Translations under genes and position numbers: made by a program
Shown: positions 4,682 through 57,951 of the stretch, in pieces
Numbering within the stretch: the first letter of the stretch is position 1
Layout of the letters: each line of letters begins with the position of its first letter
Notes under the pieces: model-generated
What the model saw: the letters and a program-made list of their open reading frames with translations, nothing else
What the model was told of the DNA's origin: nothing
Databases searched by the model: none
From: Escherichia coli
GTDB taxonomy: Bacteria; Pseudomonadota; Gammaproteobacteria; Enterobacterales; Enterobacteriaceae
Length of the DNA: 64,000 bases
Assembly (NCBI RefSeq): GCF_050920415.1
Contig: NZ_CP169309.1
Strand: one strand, 5' to 3'

Positions 4682-4752
4682 CGGCTAACTGTGCAGTCCG
4701 TTGGCCCGGTTATCGGTAGCGATACCGGGCATTTTTTTAAGGAACGATCGAT

Positions 4753-20710: not shown

Positions 20711-21919
20711 ATGACACCTTCAAATTATCAGCGTACTCGCTGGCTGACACTCATCGGTACTATCATTACCCAGTTTGCCCTGGGGTCGGTTTATACCTGG
20801 AGTCTGTTTAACGGCGCGCTTTCTGCCAAGCTGGGGGCTCCGGTAAGCCAGGTTGCTTTCTCTTTCGGCTTGTTAAGTCTGGGGCTGGCAATTTCGTCTT
20901 CTGTTGCGGGCAAATTGCAAGAACGTTTTGGTGTTAAACGCGTCACTATGGCTTCCGGCATTTTGCTGGGATTAGGTTTCTTCCTGACAGCACATTCCAA
21001 CAACCTGATGATGCTGTGGTTAAGCGCCGGTGTGTTGGTTGGTCTGGCGGATGGTGCGGGCTACCTGCTGACGCTCTCAAACTGCGTGAAGTGGTTCCCG
21101 GAGCGTAAGGGACTCATCTCTGCTTTCGCTATTGGTTCTTATGGACTTGGTAGTCTGGGTTTCAAATTTATCGATACGCAACTGTTGGAAACGGTCGGTC
21201 TGGAAAAAACCTTTGTTATTTGGGGCGCGATTGTACTGGTGATGATTGTCTTTGGCGCAACATTAATGAAAGATGCGCCGAAGCAGGAAGTGAAAACCAG
21301 CAATGGTGTGGTGGAGAAGGATTACACGCTGGCAGAGTCGATGCGTAAACCGCAGTACTGGATGTTAGCAGTTATGTTCCTGACCGCCTGCATGAGTGGC
21401 CTGTATGTGATTGGCGTGGCGAAAGATATCGCTCAAAGTCTGGCGCATCTTGATGCAATTTCCGCAGCCAATGCTGTGACGGTTATTTCCATCGCCAACC
21501 TTTCTGGTCGTCTGGTGCTGGGCATTCTGTCTGACAAAATCGCCCGTATCCGTGTTATCACCATTGGTCAGGTCATTTCGCTGGTGGGCATGGCGGCCCT
21601 GCTGTTTGCACCATTGAATGCAGTGACGTTCTTTGCAGCGATTGCCTGCGTGGCATTTAACTTCGGCGGCACTATCACGGTGTTCCCGTCACTGGTCAGT
21701 GAGTTCTTCGGCCTAAATAATCTGGCAAAAAACTACGGTGTGATTTACCTCGGTTTCGGTATCGGCAGCATTTGTGGTTCGATTATCGCTTCACTGTTTG
21801 GCGGATTCTATGTGACTTTCTACGTGATTTTCGCCCTGCTGATTCTGTCACTGGCGCTTTCTACGACGATTCGCCAGCCAGAGCAGAAAATGTTGCGTGA
21901 GGCGCATGGCTCCCTTTAA
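20711..21919 (+). CDS. yhjX: MFS transporter YhjX (oxalate/formate antiporter family)
   Basis: ORF 20666..21919; start chosen at MTPSNYQRTRWLTLIG (402 aa); 12-TM MFS profile. Confidence 0.9.
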   Translation: MTPSNYQRTRWLTLIGTIITQFALGSVYTWSLFNGALSAKLGAPVSQVAFSFGLLSLGLAISSSVAGKLQERFGVKRVTMASGILLGLGFFLTAHSNNLMMLWLSAGVLVGLADGAGYLLTLSNCVKWFPERKGLISAFAIGSYGLGSLGFKFIDTQLLETVGLEKTFVIWGAIVLVMIVFGATLMKDAPKQEVKTSNGVVEKDYTLAESMRKPQYWMLAVMFLTACMSGLYVIGVAKDIAQSLAHLDAISAANAVTVISIANLSGRLVLGILSDKIARIRVITIGQVISLVGMAALLFAPLNAVTFFAAIACVAFNFGGTITVFPSLVSEFFGLNNLAKNYGVIYLGFGIGSICGSIIASLFGGFYVTFYVIFALLILSLALSTTIRQPEQKMLREAHGSL

Positions 21920-38256: not shown

Positions 38257-39009
38257 ATGGCCGTACTGGGATTGCAGGGGGTGCGGGGAGGCGTGGGGAC
38301 AACAACCATCACTGCCGCATTAGCCTGGTCATTACAAATGTTGGGAGAAAATGTCCTGGTGGTCGATGCCTGCCCGGACAATTTGTTGCGCCTGTCATTT
38401 AACGTTGATTTTACCCACCGTCAGGGCTGGGCCAGAGCCATGCTGGACGGTCAGGACTGGCGTGACGCCGGGTTGCGCTATACCTCGCAGCTCGATTTGC
38501 TGCCTTTTGGTCAGTTATCCATTGAAGAACAAGAAAATCCTCAGCACTGGCAAACCCGGTTGAGCGATATTTGCTCCGGCTTACAGCAACTCAAAGCTAG
38601 CGGGCGTTACCAGTGGATTTTGATCGACTTACCGCGTGATGCCTCACAGATAACCCACCAGTTGCTGAGTTTGTGCGATCACTCGCTGGCAATCGTCAAT
38701 GTGGATGCCAACTGCCATATCCGGCTGCATCAGCAGGCGCTGCCGGATGGCGCGCATATTTTGATTAATGACTTCCGTATCGGCAGTCAGGTTCAGGACG
38801 ATATTTACCAGCTTTGGTTGCAAAGCCAGCGCCGATTACTGCCAATGCTCATTCATCGTGATGAAGCGATGGCTCAATGCCTGGCGGCTAAGCAACCAGT
38901 CGGTGAATACCGCAGTGATGCGCTGGCGGCTGAAGAGATACTGACGCTGGCTAACTGGTGCCTGTTGAACTATTCCGGGCTGAAAACGCCAGTCGGGAGT
39001 GCATCATGA
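38257..39009 (+). CDS. bcsQ: cellulose synthase operon protein BcsQ (ParA/MinD-like ATPase), intact
   Basis: 250-aa uninterrupted ORF starting MAVLGLQGVRGGVGTTTITAALAWSLQ; codon 6 is TTG (Leu). Confidence 0.9.
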   Translation: MAVLGLQGVRGGVGTTTITAALAWSLQMLGENVLVVDACPDNLLRLSFNVDFTHRQGWARAMLDGQDWRDAGLRYTSQLDLLPFGQLSIEEQENPQHWQTRLSDICSGLQQLKASGRYQWILIDLPRDASQITHQLLSLCDHSLAIVNVDANCHIRLHQQALPDGAHILINDFRIGSQVQDDIYQLWLQSQRRLLPMLIHRDEAMAQCLAAKQPVGEYRSDALAAEEILTLANWCLLNYSGLKTPVGSAS

Positions 39010-41624
39010 GTATCCTGACCCGGTGGTTGCTTATCCCGCCGGTCAACGCGCGGCTTATCGGGCGTTATCGCGATTATCGTCGTCACGGCGCGTCGGCTTT
39101 CAGCGCGACGCTCGGCTGTTTTTGGTTGATCCTGGCCTGGATTTTTATTCCGCTGGAGCACCCGCGCTGGCAGCGTATTCGCGCAGAACATAAAAACCTG
39201 TATCCGCATATCAACGCCTCGCGTCCGCGTCCGCTGGACCCGGTCCGTTATCTCATTCAAACATGCTGGTTACTGATCGGTACATCGCGCAAAGAAACGC
39301 CGAAACCGCGCAGGCGGGCAATTTCAGGTCTGCAGAATATTCGTGGCCGTTACCATCAATGGATGGACGAGTTGCCTGAGCGCGTTAGCCATAAAACACA
39401 GCATCTTGATGAGAAAAAAGAACTCGGTCATTTGAGCGCCGGGGCGCGGCGGTTGATCCTCGGTATCATCGTCACCTTCTCACTGATTTTGGCATTAATC
39501 TGCGTTACCCAGCCGTTTAACCCGCTGGCGCAGTTTATCTTCCTGATGCTGCTGTGGGGTGTAGCACTGATCGTACGACGAATGCCGGGACGCTTCTCGG
39601 CGCTGATGTTGATTGTGCTGTCGCTGACTGTTTCTTGCCGTTATATCTGGTGGCGCTACACCTCTACGCTGAACTGGGACGATCCGGTAAGTCTGGTGTG
39701 CGGGCTTATACTGCTGTTCGCTGAAACGTACGCGTGGATTGTGCTGGTGCTCGGCTACTTCCAGGTGGTATGGCCGCTGAATCGTCAGCCGGTGCCATTG
39801 CCGAAAGATATGTCGCTGTGGCCGTCGGTGGATATCTTTGTCCCGACTTACAACGAAGATCTCAACGTGGTGAAAAATACGATTTACGCCTCGCTGGGTA
39901 TCGACTGGCCGAAAGACAAGCTGAACATCTGGATCCTAGATGACGGCGGCAGGGAAGAGTTTCGCCAGTTTGCACAAAACGTGGGGGTGAAATATATCGC
40001 CCGTACCACTCATGAACATGCGAAAGCAGGCAACATCAACAATGCGCTGAAATATGCCAAAGGCGAGTTCGTGTCGATTTTCGACTGCGACCACGTACCA
40101 ACGCGATCGTTCCTGCAAATGACCATGGGCTGGTTCCTGAAAGAAAAACAGTTGGCGATGATGCAGACGCCGCACCACTTCTTCTCACCGGACCCGTTTG
40201 AACGCAACCTCGGGCGTTTTCGTAAAACGCCAAACGAAGGCACGCTGTTTTATGGTCTGGTGCAGGACGGCAATGATATGTGGGATGCCACTTTCTTCTG
40301 CGGTTCCTGTGCGGTGATTCGCCGTAAGCCGCTGGATGAGATTGGCGGTATTGCCGTCGAAACGGTAACCGAAGATGCGCATACTTCTCTGCGTCTGCAC
40401 CGTCGTGGCTACACTTCAGCGTATATGCGTATTCCACAGGCGGCGGGGCTGGCGACCGAAAGTCTGTCGGCGCATATCGGCCAACGTATTCGCTGGGCGC
40501 GTGGGATGGTGCAAATCTTCCGTCTTGATAACCCGCTCACCGGAAAAGGACTGAAGTTTGCTCAGCGGCTGTGCTACGTCAACGCCATGTTCCATTTCTT
40601 GTCGGGCATTCCACGACTGATCTTTCTGACTGCGCCGCTGGCGTTCCTGCTGCTGCATGCCTACATCATCTACGCGCCAGCGTTAATGATTGCTCTGTTT
40701 GTGCTGCCGCATATGATTCACGCCAGCCTGACCAACTCGAAGATTCAGGGTAAATATCGCCACTCTTTCTGGAGCGAAATCTACGAAACGGTACTGGCGT
40801 GGTATATCGCACCACCGACGCTGGTGGCGCTGATTAACCCGCACAAAGGCAAATTTAACGTCACCGCCAAAGGTGGACTGGTGGAAGAAGAGTACGTCGA
40901 CTGGGTGATCTCACGGCCCTACATTTTCCTGGTATTGCTCAACCTGGTCGGTATTGCGGTCGGTATCTGGCGTTACTTCTACGGCCCGCCAACCGAGATG
41001 CTCACTGTCATCGTCAGTATGGTGTGGGTGTTCTACAACCTGATTATTCTCGGTGGTGCGGTAGCGGTATCGGTAGAAAGCAAACAGGTTCGCCGATCGC
41101 ACCGCGTGGAGATGACGATGCCCGCGGCAATTGCCCGCGAAGATGGTCACCTCTTCTCGTGTACCGTTCAGGATTTCTCCGACGGTGGTTTGGGGATCAA
41201 GATCAACGGTCAGGCACAGATTCTGGAAGGGCAGAAAGTGAATCTGTTGCTTAAACGCGGTCAGCAAGAATACGTCTTCCCGGCCCAGGTGGCGCGCGTG
41301 ATGGGTAATGAAGTTGGGCTGAAATTAATGCCGCTCACCACCCAGCAACATATCGATTTTGTGCAGTGTACGTTTGCCCGTGCGGATACATGGGCGCTCT
41401 GGCAGGACAGCTATCCGGAAGATAAGCCGCTGGAAAGTCTGCTGGATATTCTGAAGCTCGGCTTCCGTGGCTACCGCCATCTGGCGGAGTTTGCGCCTTC
41501 TTCGGTGAAGGGCATATTCCGTGTGCTGACTTCTCTGGTTTCCTGGGTTGTATCGTTTATTCCGCGCCGCCCGGAGCGGAGCGAAACGGCACAACCATCG
41601 GATCAGGCTTTGGCTCAACAATGA
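39006..41624 (+). CDS. bcsA: cellulose synthase catalytic subunit BcsA
   Basis: ORF 38958..41624; start at MSILTRWLLIPPVN (872 aa); GT2 motifs (QTPHHF, QRIRWARG) and C-terminal PilZ domain. Confidence 0.93.
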   Translation: MSILTRWLLIPPVNARLIGRYRDYRRHGASAFSATLGCFWLILAWIFIPLEHPRWQRIRAEHKNLYPHINASRPRPLDPVRYLIQTCWLLIGTSRKETPKPRRRAISGLQNIRGRYHQWMDELPERVSHKTQHLDEKKELGHLSAGARRLILGIIVTFSLILALICVTQPFNPLAQFIFLMLLWGVALIVRRMPGRFSALMLIVLSLTVSCRYIWWRYTSTLNWDDPVSLVCGLILLFAETYAWIVLVLGYFQVVWPLNRQPVPLPKDMSLWPSVDIFVPTYNEDLNVVKNTIYASLGIDWPKDKLNIWILDDGGREEFRQFAQNVGVKYIARTTHEHAKAGNINNALKYAKGEFVSIFDCDHVPTRSFLQMTMGWFLKEKQLAMMQTPHHFFSPDPFERNLGRFRKTPNEGTLFYGLVQDGNDMWDATFFCGSCAVIRRKPLDEIGGIAVETVTEDAHTSLRLHRRGYTSAYMRIPQAAGLATESLSAHIGQRIRWARGMVQIFRLDNPLTGKGLKFAQRLCYVNAMFHFLSGIPRLIFLTAPLAFLLLHAYIIYAPALMIALFVLPHMIHASLTNSKIQGKYRHSFWSEIYETVLAWYIAPPTLVALINPHKGKFNVTAKGGLVEEEYVDWVISRPYIFLVLLNLVGIAVGIWRYFYGPPTEMLTVIVSMVWVFYNLIILGGAVAVSVESKQVRRSHRVEMTMPAAIAREDGHLFSCTVQDFSDGGLGIKINGQAQILEGQKVNLLLKRGQQEYVFPAQVARVMGNEVGLKLMPLTTQQHIDFVQCTFARADTWALWQDSYPEDKPLESLLDILKLGFRGYRHLAEFAPSSVKGIFRVLTSLVSWVVSFIPRRPERSETAQPSDQALAQQ

Positions 41625-41634
41625 TGATAACGCG

Positions 41635-43974
41635 ATGAAAAGAAAACTATTCTGGATTTGTGCAGTGGCTATGGGGATGAGTGCGTTCCCCTCTTTCATG
41701 ACGCAGGCGACGCCAGCAACGCAACCACTGATCAATGCTGAGCCAGCTGTAGCCGCCCAGACGGAACAAAATCCGCAGGTGGGGCAAGTGATGCCGGGCG
41801 TGCAGGGCGCTGATGCCCCCATCGTGGCGCAGAACGGTCCTTCGCGTGATGTGAAGCTGACCTTTGCGCAAATTGCGCCACCGCCGGGCAGCATGGTGCT
41901 ACGTGGCATTAACCCGAACGGCAGCATTGAGTTTGGTATGCGCAGCGATGAAGTGGTGACGAAGGCGATGCTCAACCTCGAATACACGCCATCGCCATCG
42001 TTACTGCCTGTCCAGTCGCAGTTAAAGGTTTATCTCAATGATGAACTGATGGGCGTGCTGCCAGTGACCAAAGAACAGTTGGGTAAAAAAACGCTGGCAC
42101 AAATGCCAATTAACCCACTGTTTATTACCGACTTCAACCGTGTGCGGCTGGAGTTTGTCGGTCATTATCAGGACGTGTGCGAAAACCCGGCCAGCACCAC
42201 GCTTTGGCTGGATGTTGGGCGGAGCAGTGGACTGGATCTGACCTATCAGACCCTGAATGTGAAGAATGATCTGTCACACTTCCCGGTACCATTCTTTGAC
42301 CCGCGTGATAACCGCACCAACACCTTGCCGATGGTCTTTGCGGGTGCGCCGGATGTTGGGCTGCAACAAGCATCTGCCATTGTCGCCTCGTGGTTTGGTT
42401 CGCGTTCTGGCTGGCGTGGGCAGAACTTCCCGGTGCTCTATAACCAACTGCCGGATCGCAATGCCATCGTTTTTGCCACTAATGACAAACGCCCGGACTT
42501 CCTGCGCGATCATCCGGCGGTAAAAGCCCCGGTGATTGAGATGATCAACCATCCACAGAATCCTTACGTCAAACTGCTGGTGGTCTTTGGTCGTGACGAC
42601 AAAGACCTGTTGCAGGCAGCGAAAGGTATCGCTCAGGGTAACATTCTGTTCCGTGGTGAAAGCGTGGTAGTGAATGAAGTGAAACCGCTGCTACCGCGTA
42701 AGCCGTACGATGCGCCGAACTGGGTGCGTACCGATCGTCCGGTCACCTTTGGTGAACTGAAAACCTATGAAGAACAGTTACAATCCAGCGGTCTTGAGCC
42801 AGCAGCGATTAACGTTTCGCTAAACCTGCCGCCGGATCTCTACCTGATGCGCAGTACCGGCATTGATATGGATATCAACTATCGCTACACCATGCCGCCG
42901 GTGAAAGACAGTTCGCGGATGGATATCAGCCTGAATAACCAGTTCCTGCAATCCTTCAACCTGAGCAGTAAACAGGAGGCGAACCGCCTGCTGCTGCGTA
43001 TTCCGGTATTACAAGGTTTGCTGGATGGCAAAACGGATGTCTCTATTCCGGCGCTGAAACTGGGCGCGACCAACCAGTTGCGGTTCGACTTTGAGTATAT
43101 GAACCCGATGCCGGGCGGTTCGGTGGATAACTGTATTACCTTCCAGCCGGTGCAGAATCATGTGGTGATTGGTGACGACTCCACCATCGACTTCTCGAAG
43201 TATTACCACTTCATCCCGATGCCGGATCTACGCGCCTTTGCTAACGCGGGCTTCCCGTTCAGCCGGATGGCGGATCTGTCACAAACCATCACCGTGATGC
43301 CGAAAGCGCCTAACGAAGCACAGATGGAAACCTTGCTGAATACCGTTGGCTTTATCGGTGCGCAGACGGGCTTCCCGGCGATTAACCTGACGGTGACCGA
43401 TGATGGCAGCACCATTCAGGGCAAAGATGCCGACATCATGATTATCGGTGGTATCCCGGACAAACTGAAAGACGACAAGCAGATCGACCTGTTGGTGCAG
43501 GCGACCGAAAGCTGGGTGAAAACGCCGATGCGCCAGACCCCGTTCCCCGGCATTGTGCCGGACGAGAGCGATCGCGCGGCAGAAACTCAATCAACGCTGA
43601 CCTCTTCCGGTGCGATGGCAGCGGTGATTGGCTTCCAGTCGCCGTATAACGACCAGCGTAGCGTGATTGCGCTGCTGGCAGATAGCCCACGCGGTTATGA
43701 AATGCTTAACGATGCGGTGAACGATAGCGGCAAACGCGCCACCATGTTCGGCTCGGTCGCGGTGATCCGCGAGTCCGGTATCAATAGCCTGCGTGTTGGC
43801 GACGTCTATTACGTTGGCCATCTGCCGTGGTTCGAACGCTTATGGTATGCGCTGGCAAACCATCCGATTCTGCTGGCGGTGCTGGCGGCAATCAGCGTCG
43901 TGCTGCTGGCCTGGGTACTGTGGCGTTTGCTGCGTATTATCAGCCGTCGTCGTCTTAACCCGGATAACGAGTAA
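41635..43974 (+). CDS. bcsB: cellulose synthase regulatory subunit BcsB
   Basis: ORF 41548..43974; start at MKRKLFWICAVAMGMSAFPSF (signal peptide), 779 aa. Confidence 0.9.
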   Translation: MKRKLFWICAVAMGMSAFPSFMTQATPATQPLINAEPAVAAQTEQNPQVGQVMPGVQGADAPIVAQNGPSRDVKLTFAQIAPPPGSMVLRGINPNGSIEFGMRSDEVVTKAMLNLEYTPSPSLLPVQSQLKVYLNDELMGVLPVTKEQLGKKTLAQMPINPLFITDFNRVRLEFVGHYQDVCENPASTTLWLDVGRSSGLDLTYQTLNVKNDLSHFPVPFFDPRDNRTNTLPMVFAGAPDVGLQQASAIVASWFGSRSGWRGQNFPVLYNQLPDRNAIVFATNDKRPDFLRDHPAVKAPVIEMINHPQNPYVKLLVVFGRDDKDLLQAAKGIAQGNILFRGESVVVNEVKPLLPRKPYDAPNWVRTDRPVTFGELKTYEEQLQSSGLEPAAINVSLNLPPDLYLMRSTGIDMDINYRYTMPPVKDSSRMDISLNNQFLQSFNLSSKQEANRLLLRIPVLQGLLDGKTDVSIPALKLGATNQLRFDFEYMNPMPGGSVDNCITFQPVQNHVVIGDDSTIDFSKYYHFIPMPDLRAFANAGFPFSRMADLSQTITVMPKAPNEAQMETLLNTVGFIGAQTGFPAINLTVTDDGSTIQGKDADIMIIGGIPDKLKDDKQIDLLVQATESWVKTPMRQTPFPGIVPDESDRAAETQSTLTSSGAMAAVIGFQSPYNDQRSVIALLADSPRGYEMLNDAVNDSGKRATMFGSVAVIRESGINSLRVGDVYYVGHLPWFERLWYALANHPILLAVLAAISVVLLAWVLWRLLRIISRRRLNPDNE

Positions 43975-48623: not shown

Positions 48624-50612
48624 TTGCGCGTAAGTCGCTCGTTAACAATCAAGCAGATGGCAATGGTGGCAGCCGTTGTCCTGGTGTTCGTTTTTATTTT
48701 TTGCACCGTTTTGCTGTTCCATCTGGTCCAGCAGAATCGCTATAACACGGCTACGCAACTGGAAAGCATTGCTCGCTCTGTCCGCGAACCCTTATCTTCT
48801 GCCATTTTGAAAGGCGATATTCCCGAAGCGGAAGCTATTCTTGCCAGCATTAAACCGGCAGGCGTGGTCAGCCGTGCCGATGTGGTGCTGCCTAACCAGT
48901 TCCAGGCGCTGCGTAAAAGTTTTATTCCAGAGCGTCCGGTGCCGGTAATGGTTACTCGCATGTTTGAGCTACCGGTGCAAATCTCGCTGGGCGTTTACTC
49001 GCTGGAACGTCCGGCAAACCCGCAGCCAATTGCCTATCTGGTGCTACAGGCGGATTCCTTCCGCATGTATAAGTTCGTGATGAGCACCCTCTCAACGTTA
49101 GTGACCATTTACTTACTTTTGTCGTTAATATTGACGGTGGCGATTAGCTGGTGCATTAACCGCCTGATTTTGCATCCGTTACGCAATATTGCTCGTGAAC
49201 TTAACGCCATCCCAGCCCAGGAGCTTGTTGGTCACCAACTGGCATTACCACGTCTGCATCAGGACGATGAAATCGGTATGCTGGTGCGCAGTTACAACCT
49301 CAACCAGCAATTGCTGCAGCGCCATTATGAAGAACAGAACGAAAATGCGATGCGCTTCCCGGTGTCGGATTTGCCGAACAAAGCCTTGCTGATGGAGATG
49401 CTGGAGCAGGTTGTCGCGCGTAAACAAACCACCGCGCTGATGATTATCACCTGTGAAACCCTGCGTGATACTGCGGGCGTGCTGAAAGAGGCGCAACGAG
49501 AAATTCTGCTGCTGACGCTGGTGGAAAAACTCAAATCGGTACTGTCGCCACGTATGATCCTCGCGCAGATTAGTGGTTATGACTTTGCTGTCATTGCCAA
49601 CGGTGTACAGGAGCCGTGGCATGCTATTACTTTAGGTCAGCAAGTGCTCACTATCATGAGCGAGTGCCTGCCGATTGAACGTATTCAACTCCGTCCGCAC
49701 TGTAGCATTGGCGTGGCGATGTTCTACGGCGATCTCACCGCCGAACAGCTTTACAGTCGCGCTATTTCTGCGGCATTTACCGCTCGCCATAAAGGTAAGA
49801 ATCAGATTCAGTTCTTTGATCCGCAGCAGATGGAAGCCGCCCAACAGCGGTTGACGGAAGAGAGCGATATCCTTAATGCACTGGAAAATCATCAGTTTGC
49901 GATTTGGTTACAGCCACAGGTCGAGATGACCAGCGGTAAACTGGTCAGTGCGGAAGTGTTACTGCGTATCCAGCAACCGGATGGCAGTTGGGATCTGCCG
50001 GATGGCTTAATCGATCGCATTGAGTGCTGTGGGCTGATGGTTACCGTCGGTCACTGGGTGCTGGAAGAGTCCTGCCGACTGCTTGCTGCCTGGCAAGAGC
50101 GCGGCATTATGCTGCCCTTGTCGGTAAACCTCTCGGCGCTGCAACTGATGCACCCGAATATGGTGGCGGATATGCTGGAGCTGTTAACCCGCTATCGCAT
50201 TCAGCCGGGAACGCTGATTCTGGAAGTGACAGAAAGCCGACGTATTGACGACCCTCATGCAGCGGTGGCAATCCTCCGCCCGTTGCGTAATGCCGGCGTT
50301 CGGGTGGCGCTGGATGATTTCGGCATGGGCTACGCAGGGCTGCGTCAGCTGCAGCATATGAAATCGTTGCCAATCGACGTGTTAAAAATCGACAAAATGT
50401 TTGTTGAAGGCTTGCCGGAAGATAGCAGCATGATTGCTGCAATTATCATGTTGGCGCAAAGCCTGAACTTACAAATGATTGCCGAAGGCGTGGAGACTGA
50501 AGCACAACGCGACTGGCTGGCAAAAGCGGGCGTTGGTATTGCCCAGGGCTTCCTTTTTGCTCGCCCACTCCCTATTGAAATCTTCGAAGAGAGTTACCTG
50601 GGAGAAAAGTAG
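48624..50612 (+). CDS. pdeK: c-di-GMP phosphodiesterase PdeK (HAMP-GGDEF-EAL)
   Basis: 662-aa ORF with TTG start per the ORF track (alternative in-frame ATG 33 nt downstream); N-terminal TM segments, degenerate GGDEF and C-terminal EAL domain. Confidence 0.82.
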
Positions 50613-52300: not shown

Positions 52301-53797
52301 ATGCAGGGCACAAAAATTCGACTTTTAGCGGGCGGTTTGCTGATGATGGCCACTGCTGGCTATGTGCAGGCAGATGCGCTCCAGCCTGATCCAGCATGGC
52401 AACAGGGGACGCTTTCCAACGGTTTACAGTGGCAAGTGCTGACCACGCCCCAGCGTCCCAGCGATCGCGTTGAAATTCGCCTGCTGGTTAATACCGGTTC
52501 GCTCGCCGAAAGTACACAACAGAGCGGTTACAGTCACGCCATCCCTCGTATTGCGTTAACGCAAAGCGGTGGCCTTGACGCAGCACAGGCGCGTTCATTG
52601 TGGCTGCAGGGGATCGACCCTAAACGCCCGATGCCGCCGGTAATTGTCTCTTATGACACCACGCTGTTTAATCTGAGTTTGCCCAATAACCGTAACGACT
52701 TGCTGAAAGAAGCGCTCTCTTATCTGGCAAATGCCACTGGCAAACTGACCATCACACCAGAAACCATCAACCACGCGCTGCAAAGTCAGGACATGGTGGC
52801 CACCTGGCCTGCCGATACTAAAGAGGGCTGGTGGCGCTATCGTCTGAAAGGATCAACCTTGTTAGGTCACGATCCTGCCGATCCGCTGAAACAACCCGTT
52901 GAAGCGGAAAAGATTAAAGATTTCTATCAGAAATGGTACACCCCGGATGCAATGACGCTGCTGGTGGTGGGAAACGTGGATGCGCGCTCGGTTGTCGACC
53001 AAATCAACAAAACGTTTGGCGAACTGAAAGGCAAACGTGAAACACCGGCTCCGGTGCCGACGCTTTCTCCGCTGCGTCCTGAAGCGGTGAGTATTATGAC
53101 CGATGCGGTACGTCAGGACCGGTTATCTATCATGTGGGATACGCCGTGGCAGCCAATTCGTGAATCAGCCGCACTGCTGCGCTACTGGCGTGCGGACCTG
53201 GCCCGTGAGGCGCTGTTCTGGCACGTTCAGCAAGCGTTAAGCACCAGTAACAGCAAAGACATCGGTCTTGGATTTGACTGCCGTGTGCTGTATCTGCGTG
53301 CGCAGTGTGCCATCAACATCGAGTCACCAAACGACAAGCTGAACAGCAACCTTAATTTGGTAGCGCGTGAGCTAGCGAAGGTTCGCGATAAAGGTCTGCC
53401 GGAAGAAGAGTTCAATGCGTTAGTGGCGCAAAAGAAACTGGAGCTGCAGAAACTGTTTGCCGCCTATGCGCGAGCTGATACCGATATTTTGATGGGGCAG
53501 CGGATGCGTTCGTTGCAAAATCAGGTCGTTGATATCGCGCCGGAGCAATATCAGAAACTGCGCCAAGATTTCCTTAATAGTCTGACGGTAGAGATGTTAA
53601 ATCAGGATCTGCGCCAGCAGTTGTCGAACGATATGGCGTTAATTCTTCTGCAGCCGAAAGGCGAGCCAGAATTTAACATGAAAGCGTTGCAGGCGGCCTG
53701 GGATCAAATCATGGCCCCATCTACTACTGCTGCCACAACCTCTGTTGCCACGGATGACGTACATCCTGAAGTGACGGATATTCCACCCGCACAGTAA
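52301..53797 (+). CDS. yhjJ: M16-family peptidase-like periplasmic protein YhjJ
   Basis: 498-aa ORF with signal peptide; size and position match yhjJ. Confidence 0.8.
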   Translation: MQGTKIRLLAGGLLMMATAGYVQADALQPDPAWQQGTLSNGLQWQVLTTPQRPSDRVEIRLLVNTGSLAESTQQSGYSHAIPRIALTQSGGLDAAQARSLWLQGIDPKRPMPPVIVSYDTTLFNLSLPNNRNDLLKEALSYLANATGKLTITPETINHALQSQDMVATWPADTKEGWWRYRLKGSTLLGHDPADPLKQPVEAEKIKDFYQKWYTPDAMTLLVVGNVDARSVVDQINKTFGELKGKRETPAPVPTLSPLRPEAVSIMTDAVRQDRLSIMWDTPWQPIRESAALLRYWRADLAREALFWHVQQALSTSNSKDIGLGFDCRVLYLRAQCAINIESPNDKLNSNLNLVARELAKVRDKGLPEEEFNALVAQKKLELQKLFAAYARADTDILMGQRMRSLQNQVVDIAPEQYQKLRQDFLNSLTVEMLNQDLRQQLSNDMALILLQPKGEPEFNMKALQAAWDQIMAPSTTAATTSVATDDVHPEVTDIPPAQ

Positions 53798-53799
53798 TG

Positions 53800-53831
53800 C
53801 CTGATGGTGATGAGTTAGCACAACCATCAGG
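53800..53831. terminator. hairpin between convergent yhjJ and kdgK (candidate bidirectional terminator)
   Basis: CCTGATGGT...ACCATCAGG 9-bp inverted repeat followed by TATTTAT. Confidence 0.45.
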
Positions 53832-53892
53832 TATTTATGGATGAGCTGGATAGAGGGGTAACACTTTATCCAGCCTTTTGCATATGCTGCTT

Positions 53893-54822
53893 TTACGCAG
53901 GCATCGCCTCACGCGGGATAATCGCGCCGCGATACTGAATAACGGTACTTGCGGTCAGGTGCCCGCGTTTCGCCGCATTTTCCGCACTGCCGCCCGTCAA
54001 ACGTACCGCCAGATAACCGGCACTGAAAGAGTCGCCAGCTGCGGTGGTATCGATCACTTTTTCTTTCGGCAGTTTCACCGCCGGAACATCCACTAACCCT
54101 TCGCCAGCAATGGACACCAGGCAAGAATCCGCCCCGCGTTTCACCACCACTTCTTTCACGCCCGCGTTATGGGTGCGCGCAATGACGTCTTCCACCGGCT
54201 GTTGACCCCACAGCGCGTCTTCATCGTCCAGCGTCAGGAAGGCGATATCCGTGCATTCCAGCATTTGCTGGTACACCTGCTGTGTCTCTTCTTTGCTGGC
54301 CCACAGGCGCGGACGATAGTTATTGTCGAAAATTACTTTTCCGCCGTTGGCGCGGCATCCGCGCAACAAAGAAAGCAGTTTCTCGCGGCTGGTCGGGCTT
54401 AAGATCGCCAGGCTAATCCCGCTCAGGTAGAGATAATCGAAATTCGCCAGCTCTTCGCAAATCGCCGCAGATTGCTCGCTCTCCAGCCAGAATTTGGCGG
54501 CGGCTTCGTTACGCCAGTAGTAGAACGTACGTTCGCCGGTGCTGTCGGTTTCAATGTAGTAAAGGCCCGGCAGACGGTTTTCCATCCGTTGGGTCAGGGA
54601 AGTATCAACGTTCTCGCCGTGCCAGGCGTCCAGCATTTGCTGGCTAAAACTGTCCGTTCCCAGCGCCGTTACGTAATGAACGGTTAATGCCGCAGGATCG
54701 ACCTGACGGGCGATATAGACGGAAGTGTTCAGGGTATCGCCGCCGAAACCGCGCTTAACGTCCGCGCCTTTCTCGGAAAGCTCAATCATGCATTCGCCAA
54801 TCACGGCAATCTTTTTGGACAT
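53893..54822 (-). CDS. kdgK: 2-dehydro-3-deoxygluconokinase
   Basis: 309-aa ORF starting MSKKIAVIGECMIELSEKG; PfkB/ribokinase family. Confidence 0.92.
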   Translation of the reverse strand: MSKKIAVIGECMIELSEKGADVKRGFGGDTLNTSVYIARQVDPAALTVHYVTALGTDSFSQQMLDAWHGENVDTSLTQRMENRLPGLYYIETDSTGERTFYYWRNEAAAKFWLESEQSAAICEELANFDYLYLSGISLAILSPTSREKLLSLLRGCRANGGKVIFDNNYRPRLWASKEETQQVYQQMLECTDIAFLTLDDEDALWGQQPVEDVIARTHNAGVKEVVVKRGADSCLVSIAGEGLVDVPAVKLPKEKVIDTTAAGDSFSAGYLAVRLTGGSAENAAKRGHLTASTVIQYRGAIIPREAMPA

Positions 54823-54886
54823 AGTCGTGAACCTGATCTGTAAAAATTAGCGTTAGTTTGCGCTGTGGTGGTTTGCTGGTCAACCA

Positions 54887-54906
54887 TATTAAAACAGTGT
54901 TCCATT
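54887..54906. promoter_or_regulatory. KdgR-like operator upstream of kdgK
   Basis: ATTAAAACAGTGTTCCATTA resembles the KdgR box (AAATGAAACA-N-TGTTTCATTT) at about 15 of 18 positions; about 65-85 bp upstream of the kdgK start. Confidence 0.4.
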
Positions 54907-54977
54907 ATTTTTTTGAGCCAGAACGTATTCCTGAAAGATTCCGTTGTGGAGTGGGGAAATTTAACCCGGCCAGGCGG

Positions 54978-55004
54978 TAAAGTTCTGCCCTTACGCGCCG
55001 ATAA
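54978..55004 (+). promoter_or_regulatory. sigma-28 (FliA) promoter of pdeH
   Basis: TAAAG-N15-GCCGATAA, an essentially perfect match to the flagellar class 3 consensus TAAA-N15-GCCGATAA, about 50 bp upstream of the pdeH ATG. Confidence 0.75.
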
Positions 55005-55052
55005 TCTTTGTCGAGTCCGGGCAGCATCACTTTTAAACACAGGACATCTTTG

Positions 55053-55820
55053 ATGATAAGGCAGGTTATCCAGCGAATAAGCAACCCTGAAGCAAGCATC
55101 GAGAGCTTGCAGGAACGGCGTTTTTGGTTGCAGTGTGAGCGTGCTTACACCTGGCAGCCGATCTATCAAACCTGCGGACGGTTAATGGCCGTGGAGCTAT
55201 TAACGGTGGTCACGCATCCCTCGAACCCTTTACAACGTCTGCCGCCGGATCGCTATTTTACTGAAATCACCGTCAGCCATCGGATGGAGGTTGTGAAAGA
55301 GCAGATTGATTTGCTGGCGCAAAATGCCGACTTCTTTGTCGAGCACGGCCTGCTGGCATCGGTCAATATTGATGGTCCTACGCTCATCGCCCTGCGTCAG
55401 CAACCAAAAATCCTGCGCCAGATTGAGCATCTTCCCTGGCTGCGTTTCGAACTGGTAGAACACATCCGCCTGCCAAAAGACTCAACCTTTGCCTCGATGT
55501 GTGAATTTGGTCCGCTGTGGCTGGATGATTTCGGCACTGGGATGGCGAATTTCTCTGCGCTAAGTGAAGTACGTTACGACTACATCAAAATCGCCCGTGA
55601 GCTGTTTGTGATGCTGCGTCAGTCACCGGAAGGACGCACGCTCTTTTCTCAGCTTTTACATCTCATGAATCGCTATTGTCGCGGGGTGATTGTCGAAGGT
55701 GTGGAAACGCAGGAAGAGTGGCGCGATGTACAAAATTCGCCTGCATTTGCTGCACAAGGCTGGTTTCTTTCACGCCCGGCACCGATAGAAACGCTGAATT
55801 CGGCAGTTCTGGCGCTATAA
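55053..55820 (+). CDS. pdeH: c-di-GMP phosphodiesterase PdeH (EAL domain)
   Basis: ORF 55008..55820; start chosen at MIRQVIQRISNPEASIESLQ (255 aa); EAL domain protein. Confidence 0.9.
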   Translation: MIRQVIQRISNPEASIESLQERRFWLQCERAYTWQPIYQTCGRLMAVELLTVVTHPSNPLQRLPPDRYFTEITVSHRMEVVKEQIDLLAQNADFFVEHGLLASVNIDGPTLIALRQQPKILRQIEHLPWLRFELVEHIRLPKDSTFASMCEFGPLWLDDFGTGMANFSALSEVRYDYIKIARELFVMLRQSPEGRTLFSQLLHLMNRYCRGVIVEGVETQEEWRDVQNSPAFAAQGWFLSRPAPIETLNSAVLAL

Positions 55821-55875
55821 GCTGCCTCATTTTCTGCCTGGCTGGACTATCTTTAGGACTGGCACAGGAAGAAAT

Positions 55876-57951
55876 ATGAGGAAGCGAATGATGAGCAAGG
55901 CAGGCAAAATAACCGCTGCGATTTCAGGGACTTTCTTGTTGTTGATTGTCGTGGCGATCATTTTGATTGCAACATTTGACTGGAATCGACTCAAACCGAC
56001 CATCAACCAGAAAGTCTCTGCGGAGTTGAATCGTCCATTCGCTATCCGTGGCGATCTGGGCGTGGTGTGGGAGCGGCAAAAACAAGAAACCGGCTGGCGC
56101 AGCTGGGTGCCGTGGCCTCATGTGCATGCAGAAGACATCATTCTTGGCAATCCGCCGGATATTCCCGAAGTAACAATGGTGCATTTGCCGCGGGTAGAAG
56201 CGACGCTGGCCCCGCTGGCGTTGCTGACCAAAACGGTCTGGCTACCGTGGATAAAACTGGAGAAGCCCGACGCGCGTCTGATTCGTCTCTCTGAAAAGAA
56301 CAATAACTGGACCTTTAATCTCGCCAATGATGACAACAAAGACATGAATGCAAAGCCGTCTGCGTGGTCGTTTCGACTGGATAATATTCTGTTCGATCAA
56401 GGGCGGATCGCTATTGATGACAAAGTAAGCAAAGCGGATCTGGAAATTTTTGTCGATCCGTTAGGCAAGCCGCTGCCGTTCAGTGAAGTTACCGGATCGA
56501 AAGGTAAAGCGGACAAAGAAAAGGTGGGCGATTACGTTTTTGGTCTGAAGGCGCAGGGACGTTATAACGGTGAACCGCTCACGGGCAAAGGTAAAATCGG
56601 CGGTATGCTGGCACTACGCGGCGAAGGTACACCGTTTCCGGTACAGGCTGATTTCCGCTCCGGGAATACTCGCGTCGCTTTTGATGGCGTCGTGAATGAC
56701 CCAATGAAGATGGGCGGTGTCGATTTACGGCTTAAATTTTCTGGCGATTCGCTGGGTGATCTCTATGAACTGACGGGTGTTCTGCTGCCCGATACCCCGC
56801 CGTTTGAAACGGATGGTCGGCTGGTAGCGAAAATCGACACTGAAAAATCGTCGGTCTTTGATTATCGCGGTTTTAATGGGCGCATTGGCGATAGCGATAT
56901 CCACGGTTCTCTGGTCTACACCACCGGCAAGCCACGACCAAAACTGGAAGGTGATGTCGAATCGCGGCAATTGCGGCTGGCAGATTTAGGGCCATTGATT
57001 GGCGTTGATTCTGGAAAAGGTGCAGAAAAGTCGAAACGGTCTGAGCAGAAGAAAGGCGAAAAAAGCATTCAGCCTGCGGGCAAAGTGCTGCCTTATGACC
57101 GCTTCGAAACCGATAAATGGGACGTCATGGATGCCGATGTCCGCTTCAAAGGTCGGCGCATTGAACATGGTAGTAGCTTGCCGATTAGCGATCTCTCTAC
57201 CCATATCATTCTCAAAAATGCTGACCTGCGCCTGCAACCGCTGAAATTTGGCATGGCGGGAGGCAGCATTGCGGCGAATATTCATCTGGAAGGCGATAAA
57301 AAGCCGATGCAAGGGCGGGCTGATATTCAGGCCCGTCGGCTGAAACTGAAAGAACTGATGCCCGATGTAGAACTGATGCAGAAGACGCTGGGGGAAATGA
57401 ACGGTGACGCGGAACTACGCGGTAGCGGTAACTCGGTGGCGGCGCTTTTAGGCAACAGTAACGGCAACCTGAAACTGTTGATGAATGACGGGCTGGTGAG
57501 CCGCAACCTGATGGAGATTGTCGGCCTGAATGTCGGCAACTACATTGTCGGTGCGATATTTGGTGATGATGAGGTGCGGGTGAACTGCGCGGCGGCGAAT
57601 CTGGATATTGCCAACGGTGTGGCGCGTCCGCAGATTTTTGCTTTTGATACTGAGAATGCGTTGATCAATGTTACCGGCACGGCAAGTTTTGCTTCGGAGC
57701 AACTGGATTTGACTATCGATCCAGAAAGTAAAGGGATTCGGATTATCACACTGCGTTCGCCGCTGTATGTGCGTGGGACATTTAAAAATCCGCAGGCTGG
57801 GGTGAAAGCCGGACCGTTGGTTGCTCGCGGAGCCGTCGCGGCGGCACTGGCAACGCTGGTAACACCGGCGGCGGCGTTACTGGCGCTGATCTCACCTTCC
57901 GAAGGGGAGGCTAATCAGTGTCGGACGATTTTGTCGCAGATGAAGAAGTGA
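55876..57951 (+). CDS. yhjG: AsmA-family protein YhjG
   Basis: 691-aa ORF with N-terminal TM anchor; start could be the Met 5 codons downstream. Confidence 0.8.
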   Translation: MRKRMMSKAGKITAAISGTFLLLIVVAIILIATFDWNRLKPTINQKVSAELNRPFAIRGDLGVVWERQKQETGWRSWVPWPHVHAEDIILGNPPDIPEVTMVHLPRVEATLAPLALLTKTVWLPWIKLEKPDARLIRLSEKNNNWTFNLANDDNKDMNAKPSAWSFRLDNILFDQGRIAIDDKVSKADLEIFVDPLGKPLPFSEVTGSKGKADKEKVGDYVFGLKAQGRYNGEPLTGKGKIGGMLALRGEGTPFPVQADFRSGNTRVAFDGVVNDPMKMGGVDLRLKFSGDSLGDLYELTGVLLPDTPPFETDGRLVAKIDTEKSSVFDYRGFNGRIGDSDIHGSLVYTTGKPRPKLEGDVESRQLRLADLGPLIGVDSGKGAEKSKRSEQKKGEKSIQPAGKVLPYDRFETDKWDVMDADVRFKGRRIEHGSSLPISDLSTHIILKNADLRLQPLKFGMAGGSIAANIHLEGDKKPMQGRADIQARRLKLKELMPDVELMQKTLGEMNGDAELRGSGNSVAALLGNSNGNLKLLMNDGLVSRNLMEIVGLNVGNYIVGAIFGDDEVRVNCAAANLDIANGVARPQIFAFDTENALINVTGTASFASEQLDLTIDPESKGIRIITLRSPLYVRGTFKNPQAGVKAGPLVARGAVAAALATLVTPAAALLALISPSEGEANQCRTILSQMKK

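Follow-up and report, generated by a model that had tools for sequence, protein, structure and literature searches.

At positions 54978-55004 of the window, that is, of the whole 64-kb stretch of E. coli DNA that was analysed, a short motif stands ahead of the pdeH gene. The question raised by this locus is whether the motif is a promoter for the flagellar sigma factor sigma-28 (FliA), and whether pdeH is transcribed from it as a member of the flagellar regulon. Both had been proposed in a first-pass annotation. As described below, the site is almost certainly a class 3 flagellar sigma-28 promoter of pdeH in E. coli.

Gene identity and neighbourhood

The gene positions are those of the RefSeq annotation of E. 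coli NZ_CP169399.1, carried over to the window. Between 34600 and 64000, the window and NZ_CP169399.1 differ at 1 base in 29.4 kb. The following genes from this annotation are relevant here.

39006-41624, + strand: bcsA
48624-50612, + strand: pdeK (annotated as hmsP)
53893-54822, - strand: kdgK
55053-55820, + strand: pdeH (yhjH), 255 amino acids
55891-57951, + strand: yhjG (AsmA family)

The motif is on the + strand, the strand of pdeH, inside the 230-bp intergenic region between the divergent kdgK and pdeH genes. The end of its -10 element is 48 nt from the ATG codon of pdeH (55053). Both pdeK and bcsA had been placed within 10 kb of the site. This is correct for pdeK, which is 4.4 kb from the motif, but not for bcsA, the nearest end of which is 13.4 kb away.

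PdeH has a single, stand-alone EAL domain (Pfam PF00563, E = 4.9e-33, residues 26-242), with a score well over the Pfam threshold. It is identical to K-12 PdeH (b3525) in 248 of 255 residues; the substitutions, with the K-12 residue first, are L57S, S60L, K91N, I96V, R126H, P220Q, and T250S. Judged from its sequence, the gene is that of PdeH/YhjH, a stand-alone EAL c-di-GMP phosphodiesterase in the kdgK-pdeH-yhjG context.

Geometry and score of the sigma-28 motif

The 27 nt at 54978-55004 on the + strand read TAAAGTTCTGCCCTTACGCGCCGATAA. They are divided as follows.

54978-54985, + strand: -35 element TAAAGTTC, 7 of 8 bases as in the consensus TAAAGTTT
54986-54996, + strand: spacer TGCCCTTACGC, 11 nt, between the two 8-mers
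54997-55004, + strand: -10 element GCCGATAA, 8 of 8 bases as in the consensus

Overall, 15 of 16 bases agree with the sigma-28 consensus TAAAGTTT-N11-GCCGATAA. The distance of 11 bp between the 8-mers, which is equivalent to TAAA-N15-GCCGATAA, is the usual fixed spacing of class 3 promoters. The first-pass annotation gave the pattern as TAAAG-N15-GCCGATAA, for which the window contains no exact match; the correct form is TAAAG-N14-GCCGATAA. The 27-nt coordinates themselves were right and are consistent with the N14 spacing. The nearest matches to the N15 form carry 2 mismatches, lie elsewhere in the window, and occur at chance expectation. The N14 form has a single exact match in the 64 kb when both strands are searched, and it was absent from all 100 shuffled sequences with preserved dinucleotides.

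For scoring, the FliA ChIP-seq sites listed in Table 2 of Fitzgerald 2014 (PMC4183435) were turned into a 28-column weight matrix. To avoid circularity, the yhjH site was left out, so that 51 sites remained. With this leave-one-out matrix, the pdeH site scored 23.3 bits, and the runner-up on either strand of the window 15.7 bits. The margin over any other position was 7.5 bits, and the mean of the window was -20 bits. Among the 52 K-12 FliA sites, the pdeH site ranks 4th, after tar, flgMN, and motA. These values bear out the description of the site as a near-consensus sigma-28 promoter.

The next-best matches to the matrix (14.5-15.7 bits) are at 4709-4736, 21758-21785, and 43441-43468, all on the - strand. 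In all three, the -10 half is good and the -35 half is poor. They are similar to the weak intragenic FliA sites of K-12.

Conservation across enterobacterial genera

Orthologous loci were collected by a PdeH protein scan with one genome per species. This gave 80 loci, distributed over about 25 genera of enterobacteria, including Escherichia, Citrobacter, Salmonella, Enterobacter, Lelliottia, Leclercia, Kosakonia, Atlantibacter, Siccibacter, Franconibacter, and Pseudocitrobacter. Two of the 80 loci were set aside as their upstream sequence was too short, and 78 were assessed. In 76 orthologous loci, kdgK is the divergent neighbour.

Both promoter blocks are kept in all 78 assessed loci, and the spacer sequence drifts. 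In 77 of them, the best match within 250 nt upstream of the start codon scored 19-24 bits with the leave-one-out matrix and is located 46-56 nt ahead of this codon. In the same 77 loci, no other position on either strand of the 5.7-kb locus scored as high. The apparent exception is the locus of Citrobacter amalonaticus S646 (L010), where the site, TAAAGTTCTCCGCACCAGCGCCGATAAC, is present but has been displaced by an insertion in the leader to about 234 nt upstream of the ATG.

In alignments anchored on the motif, the information content is 1.95 bits per column in the -35 block and 2.0 bits per column in the -10 block. Outside the blocks, it is 0.59 bits on average in the spacer, 0.53 bits in the 40 nt upstream, and 0.44-0.66 bits in the following 60 nt. 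Positions 1-7 of the -35 element are invariant (2.0 bits) among 79 anchored sequences, of which 78 are distinct, and position 8 is either C or A. All eight columns of the -10 element are invariant (2.0 bits) in 78 distinct orthologous sequences. Furthermore, the spacer length is constant in every orthologue, and all of them fit the 28-column matrix without gaps. The combination of fixed blocks, a fixed distance, and a free spacer is the classic footprint that selection on a two-block sigma recognition site leaves.

In L010, an insertion of about 190 bp (positions 2267-2490 of that locus) lies between the sigma-28 promoter and the ribosome-binding site, and the promoter is intact. The edges of the insertion are 19-nt inverted repeats with 84% complementarity. 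It resembles a short mobile or repetitive element within the leader.

It should be mentioned that one locus (L062; CACSKA010000004.1) is labelled Chryseobacterium sp. 18061. It is an enterobacterial kdgK-pdeH locus, and its promoter has the same sequence as the one in "Citrobacter sp. 18056", a genome of the same project. Mislabelling or contamination of the assembly is probable.

A second conserved block is found in the kdgK-pdeH intergenic region. This is a partial palindrome, TAAAACAGTGTTCCATTA, at window positions 54890-54907, which precedes the sigma-28 motif by about 88 nt. A related form, TAAAACAnnGTTCCA, is located 87-91 nt from the motif in the sampled loci, and 61 of 76 loci match it in at least 15 of 18 bases. 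The block at 54890-54907 resembles a KdgR operator and may serve the divergent kdgK.

Variation within E. coli

The region is present in 5,421 of 5,426 complete E. coli genomes. The exact 43-mer around the promoter in the window, which is common to K-12, is found in 2,517 of the 5,426. In five sampled strains without the exact 43-mer, the differences are at motif positions 13 and 16, both in the spacer. One of the five has a further difference at motif position 8, where variation is also seen between genera.

Window position 54993 (motif position 16) is a common A/G polymorphism, with G in all five sampled strains without the 43-mer. The allele of the pdeH region (54600-55900) is rare: only 6 of 5,422 complete genomes reach an identity of 99% or more over 1.3 kb, and the majority lie at 95-99%. 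In E. coli DSM 111506 (L087), the region between kdgK and pdeH is interrupted by an IS4-like IS421 element (positions 1218-2330 of that locus). Homology restarts at window position 54954, 24 bp upstream of the -35 element, and the sigma-28 promoter is intact.

The K-12 promoter and related systems

The yhjH/pdeH promoter of K-12 (FliA motif centre at 3677273 of NC_000913.2) has the same 28-mer, TAAAGTTCTGCCCTTACGCGCCGATAAT, as the window. When K-12 MG1655 and the window are compared, the sequence from the -35 element through the ATG is identical and the neighbours are the same, with kdgK divergent and yhjG downstream. Further upstream than the -35 element, the two sequences differ by no more than two substitutions and a single 1-nt indel, and PdeH differs in 7 of 255 residues. 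This comparison indicates that the window promoter is the same element as the K-12 yhjH/pdeH promoter, in another strain.

This element is already known and has been experimentally characterised in K-12; it is not new. In the ChIP-seq study of Fitzgerald 2014, TAAAGTTCTGCCCTTACGCGCCGATAAT is the FliA site of yhjH, with a FAT (fold above threshold) value of 67, among the strongest of the genome (PMC4183435). The centre of the yhjH peak is 29 nt downstream of the motif centre, which fits the median offset of 25 nt found in that study for the holoenzyme at promoters (PMC4183435).

Expression in a fliA mutant had been put forward in the first-pass annotation as a check, and this experiment had already been made in K-12 by two groups, with the outcome that was predicted. 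The normalised yhjH RNA was 511 in motile MG1655 and 2 in delta-fliA (PMC4183435). In Zhao 2007, yhjH was down 9.6-fold in the deletion of sigma-F (fliA) and up 1.9-fold five minutes after induction, and it was cited as a previously reported sigma-F-dependent gene (PMC1935009). In addition, pdeH, "the class 3 flagellar gene", was chosen by Klauck 2018 for a reporter of sigma-FliA activity (pdeH::gfp; PMC6119863). According to the primer sequences, the fragment used there, from -280 to +51 relative to the ATG, corresponds to window 54773-55103 and contains the motif (PMC6119863). Together with the strand and position of the motif and its conservation in 78 of 78 loci, these K-12 data agree with the proposal that the promoter drives pdeH within the flagellar regulon.

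The functional data are all from K-12 or Salmonella. FliA occupancy and dependence have been shown for the identical K-12 sequence, from which we infer that the promoter would be active in the window's strain as well.

The class 3 promoters of E. coli and Salmonella, such as those of tar, motA, tsr, fliC, and flgMN, have the same TAAAGTTT-N11-GCCGATAA architecture and comparable scores. A near-total dependence on FliA is common to K-12 yhjH and tar, tsr, and fliC (PMC4183435). The pdeH promoter differs from the canonical class 3 promoters in that it drives the gene of a c-di-GMP phosphodiesterase, not a structural flagellar or chemotaxis gene. It has been stated that the flagellar-related, well-characterised FliA promoters are well conserved in sequence (Fitzgerald et al., bioRxiv 10.1101/188474), and the conservation of the pdeH site across genera agrees with this statement.

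The same regulatory logic is seen in Pseudomonas putida KT2440, where the phosphodiesterase gene bifA has a FliA-dependent promoter (PMC5300878): an enzyme that degrades c-di-GMP is controlled by the flagellar sigma factor, which keeps c-di-GMP low in motile cells. BifA is a different protein from PdeH, and the control of bifA by FliA is reported to be partial (PMC5300878), whereas that of K-12 pdeH is near-complete (PMC4183435).

The result does not change existing knowledge; it is usable as a positive control for the reading of raw sequence. What was recovered from the sequence is a textbook link, from the flagellar sigma factor to the main c-di-GMP phosphodiesterase of E. coli. The comparison of genera adds a clean illustration of recognition blocks that are absolutely constrained over about 25 genera around a free spacer.

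Predicted transcription start region and leader

By the general rule that transcription starts about 6-9 nt past the -10 element, the start region and the leader are predicted as follows.

55010-55014, + strand: predicted transcription start region of pdeH
55011-55052, + strand: predicted 5' leader, about 40 nt, with the Shine-Dalgarno sequence AGGA at 55041-55044

The pdeH transcript should therefore begin near 55010-55014, which corresponds to about 3,679,226-3,679,230 on the minus strand of K-12 NC_000913.3. A moderately conserved block in the other genera, T(T/G)GACGAGTCC, coincides with this predicted start and early leader (55008-55018). No mapped start for yhjH or at the expected coordinates was found in the supplementary files, possibly incomplete, of Ettwiller 2016, Cho 2014, and Kim 2012. 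The primer names of Klauck 2018 (-280 and +51) were considered as evidence for the start site and rejected; their numbering runs from the ATG.

The sequence ACAGGAC is kept 7-9 nt ahead of the start codon in the other genera. The predicted folding energy of the leader is -6.7 kcal/mol (z = +0.84). Its structure is not unusual, in agreement with a ribosome-binding site that is accessible. When 53800-56000 was searched against Rfam at E <= 1, the only matches were two to microRNAs, both at chance level, with about 20 bits against gathering scores of more than 70.

Proposed mechanism and alternative explanations

The proposed mechanism follows what is established for the flagellar cascade. FlhDC activates fliA. 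The anti-sigma factor FlgM blocks FliA activity as long as the hook-basal body is unfinished, and is then exported. Free FliA with RNA polymerase recognises TAAAGTTC (-35) and GCCGATAA (-10), 11 bp apart, and initiation should occur about 6-9 nt beyond the -10 element. The resulting mRNA would have a short, unstructured leader of about 40 nt with a good ribosome-binding site. Under this control of FliA by FlhDC and FlgM, PdeH is produced at the same time as the late proteins of flagella and chemotaxis. The EAL domain of PdeH degrades c-di-GMP, so that the level is low in motile cells. At low c-di-GMP, the YcgR flagellar brake is off, and the production of curli and cellulose is held back in motile cells.

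Three alternatives to this reading were weighed. The one that survives best is that the promoter is intact but silent in the window's strain, because FlhDC and FliA are not expressed, as in a non-motile lineage. Many isolates of E. coli express flhDC poorly or are non-motile. Both fliA and flhDC are located outside the 64-kb window, and the pdeH allele is the rare one described above. The promoter, the leader, and the coding sequence are, however, fully intact, with 248 of 255 residues as in K-12 and the EAL domain above the Pfam threshold. This intactness argues for continued selection, and silence of the promoter seems unlikely.

It is highly improbable that the motif is a real sigma-28 site while pdeH is transcribed mainly from another intergenic promoter, dependent on sigma-70 or sigma-S, with FliA contributing only a share. 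Such an arrangement is reported for bifA of P. putida (PMC5300878). A scan of 53500-56200 for the sigma-70 consensus found no site, and the sole other conserved upstream block, about 88 nt away, looks like an operator of kdgK. In K-12, the fall of the RNA from 511 to 2 without FliA leaves nothing to be explained by a second promoter in the conditions used (PMC4183435). What speaks for a second promoter is that the divergent kdgK promoter lies in the same intergenic region, and that some flagellar operons, such as fliLMNOPQR, flgMN, and flgKL, retain most of their expression without FliA (PMC4183435).

A chance match to the FliA consensus, free of promoter function, would be in keeping with the origin of FliA-like sequences by drift (the majority of the 52 sites in K-12 lie inside genes and lack conservation) and with the weak matches of 12-16 bits elsewhere in the window, but its probability is practically negligible, as the exact pattern is absent from all the shuffles, both blocks are invariant in every assessed locus despite the drift of the spacer, and in K-12 FliA binds the identical sequence, with yhjH RNA falling about 250-fold in delta-fliA (PMC4183435).

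Candidate control elements on the pdeH transcript

The gap between pdeH and yhjG is filled by a very stable predicted hairpin at 55816-55890 (-31.3 kcal/mol, z = -5.25), which was equalled by none of 200 shuffles. Its 3' arm overlaps the region just ahead of the yhjG start (55891). The hairpin was not called by the terminator scan because it has no U-tract. It could be a stabiliser of the mRNA 3' end, a control of read-through, or a control of yhjG translation.

There is a slight chance that the sigma-28 transcript of pdeH carries extra, undescribed control elements, namely the T(T/G)GACGAGTCC block, the pdeH-yhjG hairpin, or both. If so, either of them could set the stability of the mRNA. The hairpin could also gate read-through into yhjG or its translation, and yhjG would in this way be linked to the flagellar regulon.
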